Of a DNA stretch of 64,000 nucleotides, positions 55,718 to 56,374 are shown in pieces. Numbering within the stretch: the first letter of the stretch is position 1; each line of letters starts with the position of its first letter. Both the position numbers and the translations under genes were made by a program. The DNA lies in sequence record PQ666539; one strand, given 5' to 3'. This stretch comes from Shigella phage sb1. The notes beneath the pieces were generated by a model. That model saw only the letters and a program-made list of their open reading frames with translations. It did no database searches and was not told the origin of the DNA.

Positions 55718-56374
55718 ATGGCTGATTTAAAAGTAGGTTCAACTGTGGGTGGATCTGTCATTTGGCATCAAGGAAATTTTCCATTGAATTCAGCCGGTGA
55801 CGATGTACTCTACAAATCATTTAAAATATATTCAGAATATAATAAACCACAGGCAGCTGATAATGATTTAGTTTCTAAAGCTAATGGTGGCACGTATTTA
55901 AATAAAGTAATTTTTAATAAAGGAATGACTGTTCCCGGTGCAGGGTCAGGTGACAATGGTATTTTTGCTGTTCCTTGTGATAATGCCACATATGATACTA
56001 CAAATATGGATATTGTTTCGTGTTATGGTATTGGTTTTAAATCATCACAAGGAACAGCAGGTAGAACTGTAGTAATTAACACACGAAATGGAGATATTAG
56101 CTCAAAGGGCGTAATTGAAGCATCGCAAATACGCGCAACTTCATTATCTCCATTAAATAATTATGACCTCACGCGGAAAGATTATGTCGATGGAGCAATA
56201 AATATTGTTACAGCAAACGCAAACTCTAGAGTATTACGCTCTGGAGATAATATGACAGGTAACTTAACCGCGCCAAACCTTTTTTAACAGAATCCTTCAT
56301 CTCAACCTTCGCATGTTCCACGATTTGATCAAATTGTTATTAAGGATTCTGTTCAAGATTTCGGCTATTATTAA
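55718..56374 (+). pseudogene. 36: long tail fibre distal connector gp36, interrupted by in-frame TAA at 56285..56287
   Basis: frame continues 29 codons past the stop to TAA 56372..56374 with a T4 gp36-like C-terminus (...SQPSHVPRFDQIVIKDSVQDFGYY). Confidence 0.85.

Follow-up and report, generated by a model that had tools for sequence, protein, structure and literature searches.

The window analyzed here, a stretch of 64,000 nucleotides from the Shigella phage sb1 record (PQ666539), carries genes 34-35-36-37-38-t in an order colinear with that of Shigella phage pSs-1 and T4. Gene 36, the gene for the long tail fibre distal hinge connector, lies between genes 35 and 37, and its product matches the Pfam family PF03903 (Phage_T4_gp36; 85.3 bits against a cutoff of 26, E = 5e-24, residues 56-180). 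The frame occupies 55718-56375 on the plus strand and, across all 218 codons, specifies a protein 95% identical to pSs-1 gp36. Counted from the ATG at 55718, both the ORF list and the translation place an in-frame TAA at 56285-56287, which is codon 190. Gene 36 as read is therefore 189 codons followed by a premature stop (55718..56287); behind it the frame remains open for 28 sense codons (QNPSSQPSHVPRFDQIVIKDSVQDFGYY) and ends at the natural TAA, 56373-56375 (remainder, 56288..56375). A sequence-only reading of this DNA had placed the TAA 29 codons before the natural stop of the gene, which in-frame translation bore out, and the peptide strings that it quoted agree exactly with the translation.

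The premature stop results from a single C>A change at 56286 that is private to the window. Reference alignment identified the corresponding codon of T4 gp36 as Ser193 (TCG), as had been proposed for T4 from the letters alone, and close relatives also encode serine there: the codon is TCA in pSs-1, Sfk20, sb2, ECp13, KNP5, and sb4, and TCG in Ec_YwIITB1. The last 28 residues of gp36 are identical from T4 to pSs-1, while the remainder of the protein diverges, and the window encodes the same 28 residues save for one A>S replacement, which derives from a private G>T at 56297. With its TAA at codon 190, the window copy does not provide a full-length open reading frame of the PF03903 family that includes this conserved C terminus. 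To assemble the fibre, gp36 must bind the N terminus of gp37 (PMC3004832); we sought a solved gp36 structure by which to judge the role of the lost C terminus, and none exists. Gene 37 is intact according to the ORF list and the comparison with relatives (1102 amino acids, 56383..59691, plus strand), and, a short way past gene 36, its GAGGA ribosome-binding site is unchanged, as is its ATG.

The stop is one of a local trio of private G:C>T:A changes (56250..56297), namely 56250 C>A (T>N), 56286 C>A (S>stop), and 56297 G>T (A>S). Three further private changes of the same class fall within the gene at 55870, 56023 (W>C), and 56153, so that the six together specify F>L, W>C, V>L, T>N, S>stop, and A>S, all at sites that are invariant among the relatives compared. 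Searches for an exact copy of the mutated 38-mer in IMG/VR, metagenome contigs, and genome contigs, and by megablast in a phage collection, returned none; as no identical 38-mer was found elsewhere, the gene 36 TAA is without independent support. Exact-protein look-ups of the truncated gp36 and of the gp37 of the window found neither on record.

In-frame stops were surveyed across the window by tblastn with all 90 pSs-1 proteins from the homologous region. The survey revealed 28 in-frame stops in 20 of the 90 genes, and no frameshift relative to the pSs-1 protein in any of the 90. It is on this point that the sequence-only reading has to be amended: its description of a T4-like gene 36, with TAA in place of a serine and 28 conserved C-terminal codons behind the stop, stands, but its framing of the stop as a gene 36 event is not supported, since 27 other such stops lie in the same window. 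By codon, the stops comprise 22 TAA, 3 TAG, and 3 TGA; the residues lost are Glu at 18 sites, Ser at 4, Gly at 3, Tyr at 2, and Leu at 1. All but one are explained by one G:C>T:A change each, the exception being a T>A in gp23. At the 27 sites of G:C>T:A origin, all relatives agree with one another, bar two sites shared with sb4.

Stops interrupt both structural or assembly genes and early or middle genes. Among the former are the scaffold gp22 (TAA at 5097, S25, and 5367, E115) and the major capsid protein gp23 (TAA at 6672, L274), both within 5025..7418 on the plus strand; gp51 (16664), gp27 (17689, TGA, and 18130), gp29 (18952, TGA), and gp48 (20739), within 14100..20741; and, on the plus strand, gene 34 (50662..54531), with four TAA codons at 51772, 51841, 52702, and 54211 (S371, E394, E681, and E1185), gene 35 (54540..55655), with a TAA at 55164-55166 (E209), and gene 36. 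The early and middle genes include uvsW.1 (14130) and uvsY (15196, minus strand), again within 14100..20741, an interval for which we inferred the T4 gene names from the products annotated in pSs-1 and from gene order. The others are on the minus strand within 22641..48267: alt (24504, TAG), the gene for an Rz-like spanin (38072), alc (38251 and 38437, both TAG), rnlA (39293, and 39446, TGA), nrdA (43452 and 43455), and gp32 (48265). Four hypothetical genes also bear stops, those at 22641, 30391, and 34742 being on the minus strand in the same interval. In nrdA, codons 124-125 (43452-43457, minus strand) are adjacent Glu codons that have changed from GAAGAA to TAATAA, and only the second change is common to sb4. 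The alt region contains two tandem paralogues of Alt-like ADP-ribosyltransferases on the minus strand (22983-25037 and 25044-27095, about 41% protein identity), as in pSs-1, and it is the first that bears the in-frame TAG. Elsewhere in the window, the Hoc-like head decoration gene hoc (10965-11558) contains an internal direct repeat of about 300 bp at 77-78% identity, and Hoc is the least conserved protein of the window, at 91% identity to pSs-1.

T4 genetics has established that T4-type phages need gp23, gp22, gp32, gp27, gp29, gp48, gp51, and gp34-36. A phage in which nonsense codons interrupt gp23, gp32, the baseplate hub, and all but one of the four long-fibre proteins could therefore form no plaques; as regards the fibre proteins, a review of long-fibre assembly backs the requirement (PMC3004832).

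We compared the substitutions in the window with those in its relatives. The window aligns colinearly, at 95.6% nucleotide identity, with the terminal 64 kb of pSs-1 (NC_025829.1, Tequatrovirus). Transitions between the two occur about equally in either direction (447 A>G versus 428 G>A, and 451 C>T versus 450 T>C), and the only asymmetric class is C>A (219, versus 70 A>C) together with G>T (221, versus 97 T>G). This G:C>T:A excess is even along the window, at 13-43 events per 4 kb, and the G+C content of the window is 0.4 points under that of the homologous part of pSs-1. When changes were polarized with four, and then five, relatives (pSs-1, KNP5, Ec_YwIITB1, sb4, and sb2), the window-private changes numbered 954 or 851, of which G:C>T:A contributed 277 or 267, respectively (29-31%), compared with 6% of private changes in pSs-1 and 9-11% in KNP5, sb2, and Ec_YwIITB1. 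The roughly 270 private G:C>T:A changes affect about 1.2% of all G:C positions in the window.

The coding consequences of this class fit unselected random change (chi-square p = 0.33): 210 missense, 24 nonsense, 30 synonymous, and 13 non-coding changes were observed, where 208, 31, 24, and 15, respectively, would be expected if unselected. The four other testable substitution classes are skewed to synonymous change (p < 1e-5). For A:T>G:C, no p-value was calculated, one of its expected counts being zero, but its synonymous skew is the largest of all classes (38 missense, 0 nonsense, 231 synonymous, and 7 non-coding). Because only G:C>T:A lacks this skew, the window is best described as a normally evolving, functional genome that carries, in addition, an unselected G:C>T:A overlay. 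The underlying genome appears to be that of an ordinary functional Tequatrovirus of the pSs-1 group, whose real divergence consists mostly of synonymous transitions and in-frame indels.

The overlay was also examined for local structure. No flanking-base preference was detected within 4 bases of the G:C>T:A changes, and all 16 trinucleotides are affected, at 0.4-1.85%. A long-range strand-run test for single-molecule origin was null (z = -0.4). At short range, pairs of changes less than 50 bp apart are more often of the same type (53) than mixed (29; p = 0.011), with no correlation at longer range; in sb4, the equivalent pairs are 47 same-type and 46 mixed, that is, without clustering.

The closest records to the window include those of sb2, sb3, and sb4 (PQ666540-42), from lake water in Kolkata. 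In the homologous 64 kb, sb4 (PQ666542.1, 100900-164971) has 51 in-frame stops in 29 of the 90 genes, with no frameshifts, while sb2 has 4, KNP5 1, and pSs-1 none. The private excess in sb4 comprises both G:C>T:A (162-168) and A:T>T:A (125-132), and its annotation is fragmented into 301 features, among them pieces of uvsW, gp27, gp28, gp48, alt, DNA ligase, rnlA, td, gp37, and motA. The four stops of sb2 (PQ666540.1) fall in gp34, the tail sheath, and one hypothetical gene, and its gene 34 is annotated in two pieces. The record of Ec_YwIITB1 (PQ356294.1) also has a quality problem, albeit a different one, of the indel type: four genes are split over reading frames, and gp23, hoc, and nrdB are annotated in pieces. 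The records of pSs-1, sb2, sb3, sb4, and Ec_YwIITB1 all finish at the base where the window ends (63999-64000), which suggests that the window is the final 64 kb of a record linearized at that point.

Some of the G:C>T:A changes are common to the window and sb4 and absent from the other relatives, numbering from 15 (with five references) to 24 (with three references), where about 2 would be expected by chance, plus a few natural ones. The sites include 38074, 43454, 55971, 55976, 38070, 38097, 18091, 8737, and 4036; among the shared changes are nonsense codons in the Rz-like spanin gene (38074) and nrdA (43454), as well as G>V and G>C replacements in gp36. As this sharing exceeds chance, independent random damage fails to explain it. 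Cross-sample bleed, site-specific susceptibility, and real shared variants are all possible sources, and the pattern points to some non-independence between the two libraries.

The four genomes (ADG1, AKR2, CDR3, and TMC4) were described together as products of Twist enzymatic libraries made from 50 ng DNA, PCR-amplified, sequenced on a NovaSeq 6000, and assembled with SKESA (PMC11993411). In that description, ADG1 (PQ666539; 164,945 bp) has 285 CDS, versus 254-255 in the two cleaner sibling genomes, and the lowest G+C content, 35.16%, the others being at about 35.5% (PMC11993411). A G:C>T:A overlay would produce such a high CDS count and low G+C. Interrupted genes go unmentioned in the paper, which places the phages in Tunavirus; their genomes, of about 165 kb, are colinear with those of pSs-1 and T4, two phages assigned to Tequatrovirus in the database taxonomy.

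We consider it very probable that the gene 36 TAA entered the sequence record as an error at consensus level and that no viable phage carries it; the grounds are that 28 stops are scattered over essential genes, that they go back to one kind of base change, and that this class shows no sign of selection. The signature of the artefact is that of oxidative damage, G>T/C>A: the excess is confined to this class, and its coding effects show no purifying selection. Some 270 G:C>T:A changes overlie the genome, and neither position, strand, flanking bases, nor effect on coding governs where they fall. Where one met a GAA, GAG, GGA, TCA, or TAC codon it could create a stop, as happened at 27 sites in the window, Ser190 of gene 36 being one of them. 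The probable cause is oxidized guanine (8-oxoG) in the template DNA, which would be read as G>T/C>A, and for the lesions to reach the consensus, either amplification from very few template molecules or an effective coverage that was very low would be needed. That changes less than about 50 bp apart cluster weakly by strand fits damage at the level of the fragment. Such a bottleneck is an additional assumption, and it has to be made because these changes reached the consensus while the documented artefacts occur only at low allele fraction. Accordingly, the gene 36 TAA holds no information on gp36 function, readthrough, or recoding.

Other explanations account for the stop less well. An ochre mutation genuinely present in gene 36 of a living phage, with the truncated gp36 still functional and so tolerated, or rescued by readthrough or a suppressor tRNA, agrees with the presence of the TAA in the sequence as given and with the 28 intact, in-frame codons downstream of it. 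Among the tRNA genes of T4-type phages is one for tRNA-Ser(UGA), from which a suppressor can arise by mutation, and in the sibling phages this tRNA is reported in its wild-type form. The ten ordinary tRNAs reported for the siblings, however, include no suppressor anticodon, and a tRNA scan of the 64-kb window found no tRNA at all, and hence no suppressor, the tRNA cluster lying outside the window. The same explanation would also have to account for 27 other stops of three kinds in gp23, gp32, gp34, and other genes, for a missense load equal to the no-selection expectation, and for the loss of 28 residues identical between T4 and pSs-1 from a protein that binds the gp37 N terminus (PMC3004832); we therefore regard it as highly improbable. 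Stop-codon reassignment, in which TAA, or every in-frame stop, is read as an amino acid as in some recoded phages, might be suggested by the prevalence of TAA (22 of 28), often in late structural genes. Yet 56 of the 85 genes scored, genes 34 and 36 included, end normally with TAA, and it is on this account that we exclude recoding. TAG and TGA also occur in frame, early genes are affected as well, relatives at 95-96% nucleotide identity lack such stops, neither the window nor the listed sibling tRNAs supply a suppressor, and the residues replaced (E, S, G, Y, and L) are those predicted by single G:C>T:A changes, with no one consistent amino acid. In a recoded genome the reassigned codon would be avoided as a terminator and would align with a single amino acid in relatives; neither pattern was found, recoding was rejected, and we assign it a negligible probability.

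Two further explanations bear on the origin of the G:C>T:A class as a whole. T4-type DNA carries modified C. The glucosyl-hydroxymethylcytosine of T-even phages might cause errors in long-read base-calling, which would place every error at a C or its paired G, as is the case here. Miscalls of this kind would be expected to depend on sequence context and to bring indels or frameshifts, none of which is seen, and the strand coordination is short-range only; moreover, the siblings were sequenced on the Illumina NovaSeq from PCR-amplified libraries. A base-caller motif at modified cytosines was rejected on the flanking bases, which show no context signal, and miscalling is a very unlikely source of the stops. 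Somewhat less improbable, though still decidedly unlikely, is a biological G:C>T:A hypermutation, or DNA from non-viable or oxidized genomes (an aged stock, or a mutator-like condition), in which the changes are present in the molecules. The 8-oxoG spectrum, the short-range strand clustering, and the changes common to sb4, which came from the same lake and laboratory, are all consistent with it. Against it, the siblings, and so presumably sb1 too, were isolated and grown as lytic phages, and lytic growth implies that the bulk genome encodes working gp23, gp32, and tail fibres. Nor is any other class unselected, and frameshifts are absent, unlike in replication-driven mutation accumulation; real accumulation of mutations, for which unselected transitions and frameshifts are expected, was rejected because the window has neither. 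If lesions in stock DNA are only scored as G>T on sequencing, this explanation becomes in effect the artefact one. There is, in our view, only a very slight chance that the load is physically present in packaged DNA, following a burst of guanine oxidation, with defective genomes persisting by co-infection and complementation. If so, host or environmental oxidative attack on phage DNA could be an example of its source, and the changes shared by two separately named isolates would mark common descent.

With record error as the preferred reading, the stop tells us nothing new about tail-fibre biology, and its practical value is as a warning about data quality. The sb1 sequence and at least one deposited sibling (sb4, PQ666542.1) would contain hundreds of consensus G:C>T:A errors, which interrupt between roughly a fifth and a third of the genes of the region, raise gene counts, depress G+C, and give rise to spurious "truncated" proteins. 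Scans of these records for pseudogenes, recoding, readthrough, or gp34-37 host range would be misled. The approach that we used to separate artefact from real gene decay, in which one substitution class is compared with its neutral expectation while selection is still visible in the others, could be applied routinely.

Oxidative artefacts reportedly favour certain sequence contexts, a trait that the window, with no motif and all 16 trinucleotides affected, does not display. The C>A/G>T artefacts documented at low allele fraction from DNA oxidized during library preparation (Costello et al. 2013; PMC3616734) resemble the overlay in their substitution class, in their symmetry between the two strands, and in being blind to coding consequence. 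They differ in that they arose with acoustic shearing and stayed at low allele fraction, whereas the changes in the window are context-free and in the consensus, and the sibling libraries were sheared enzymatically. The absence of context, the enzymatic shearing, and the changes shared between the window and sb4 are the weak points of an artefact mechanism. The sb4 (TMC4) record is itself similar to the window, being of the same clade, colinear, and ending at the same base, with a G:C>T:A excess, many stops, and no frameshifts; unlike the window, it also has an A:T>T:A excess, more stops (51), and TCA at the gene 36 codon.

Compared with T4 gp36, the window copy agrees in gene order, in its PF03903 match, and in the last 28 residues apart from the one change derived from G>T, but it has TAA at the Ser193 site and replacements at otherwise invariant positions (e.g., W>C and T>N), and its private replacements are all of the G:C>T:A class. 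The classical amber and ochre mutants of T4 were single, selected laboratory mutations, grown on suppressor hosts. Gene 36 of the window resembles the tail-fibre mutants among them in having a single-base nonsense codon in a fibre gene whose frame is otherwise intact; in contrast to those mutants, the window as a whole has 28 stops of three kinds in unrelated essential genes, together with an unselected missense load.
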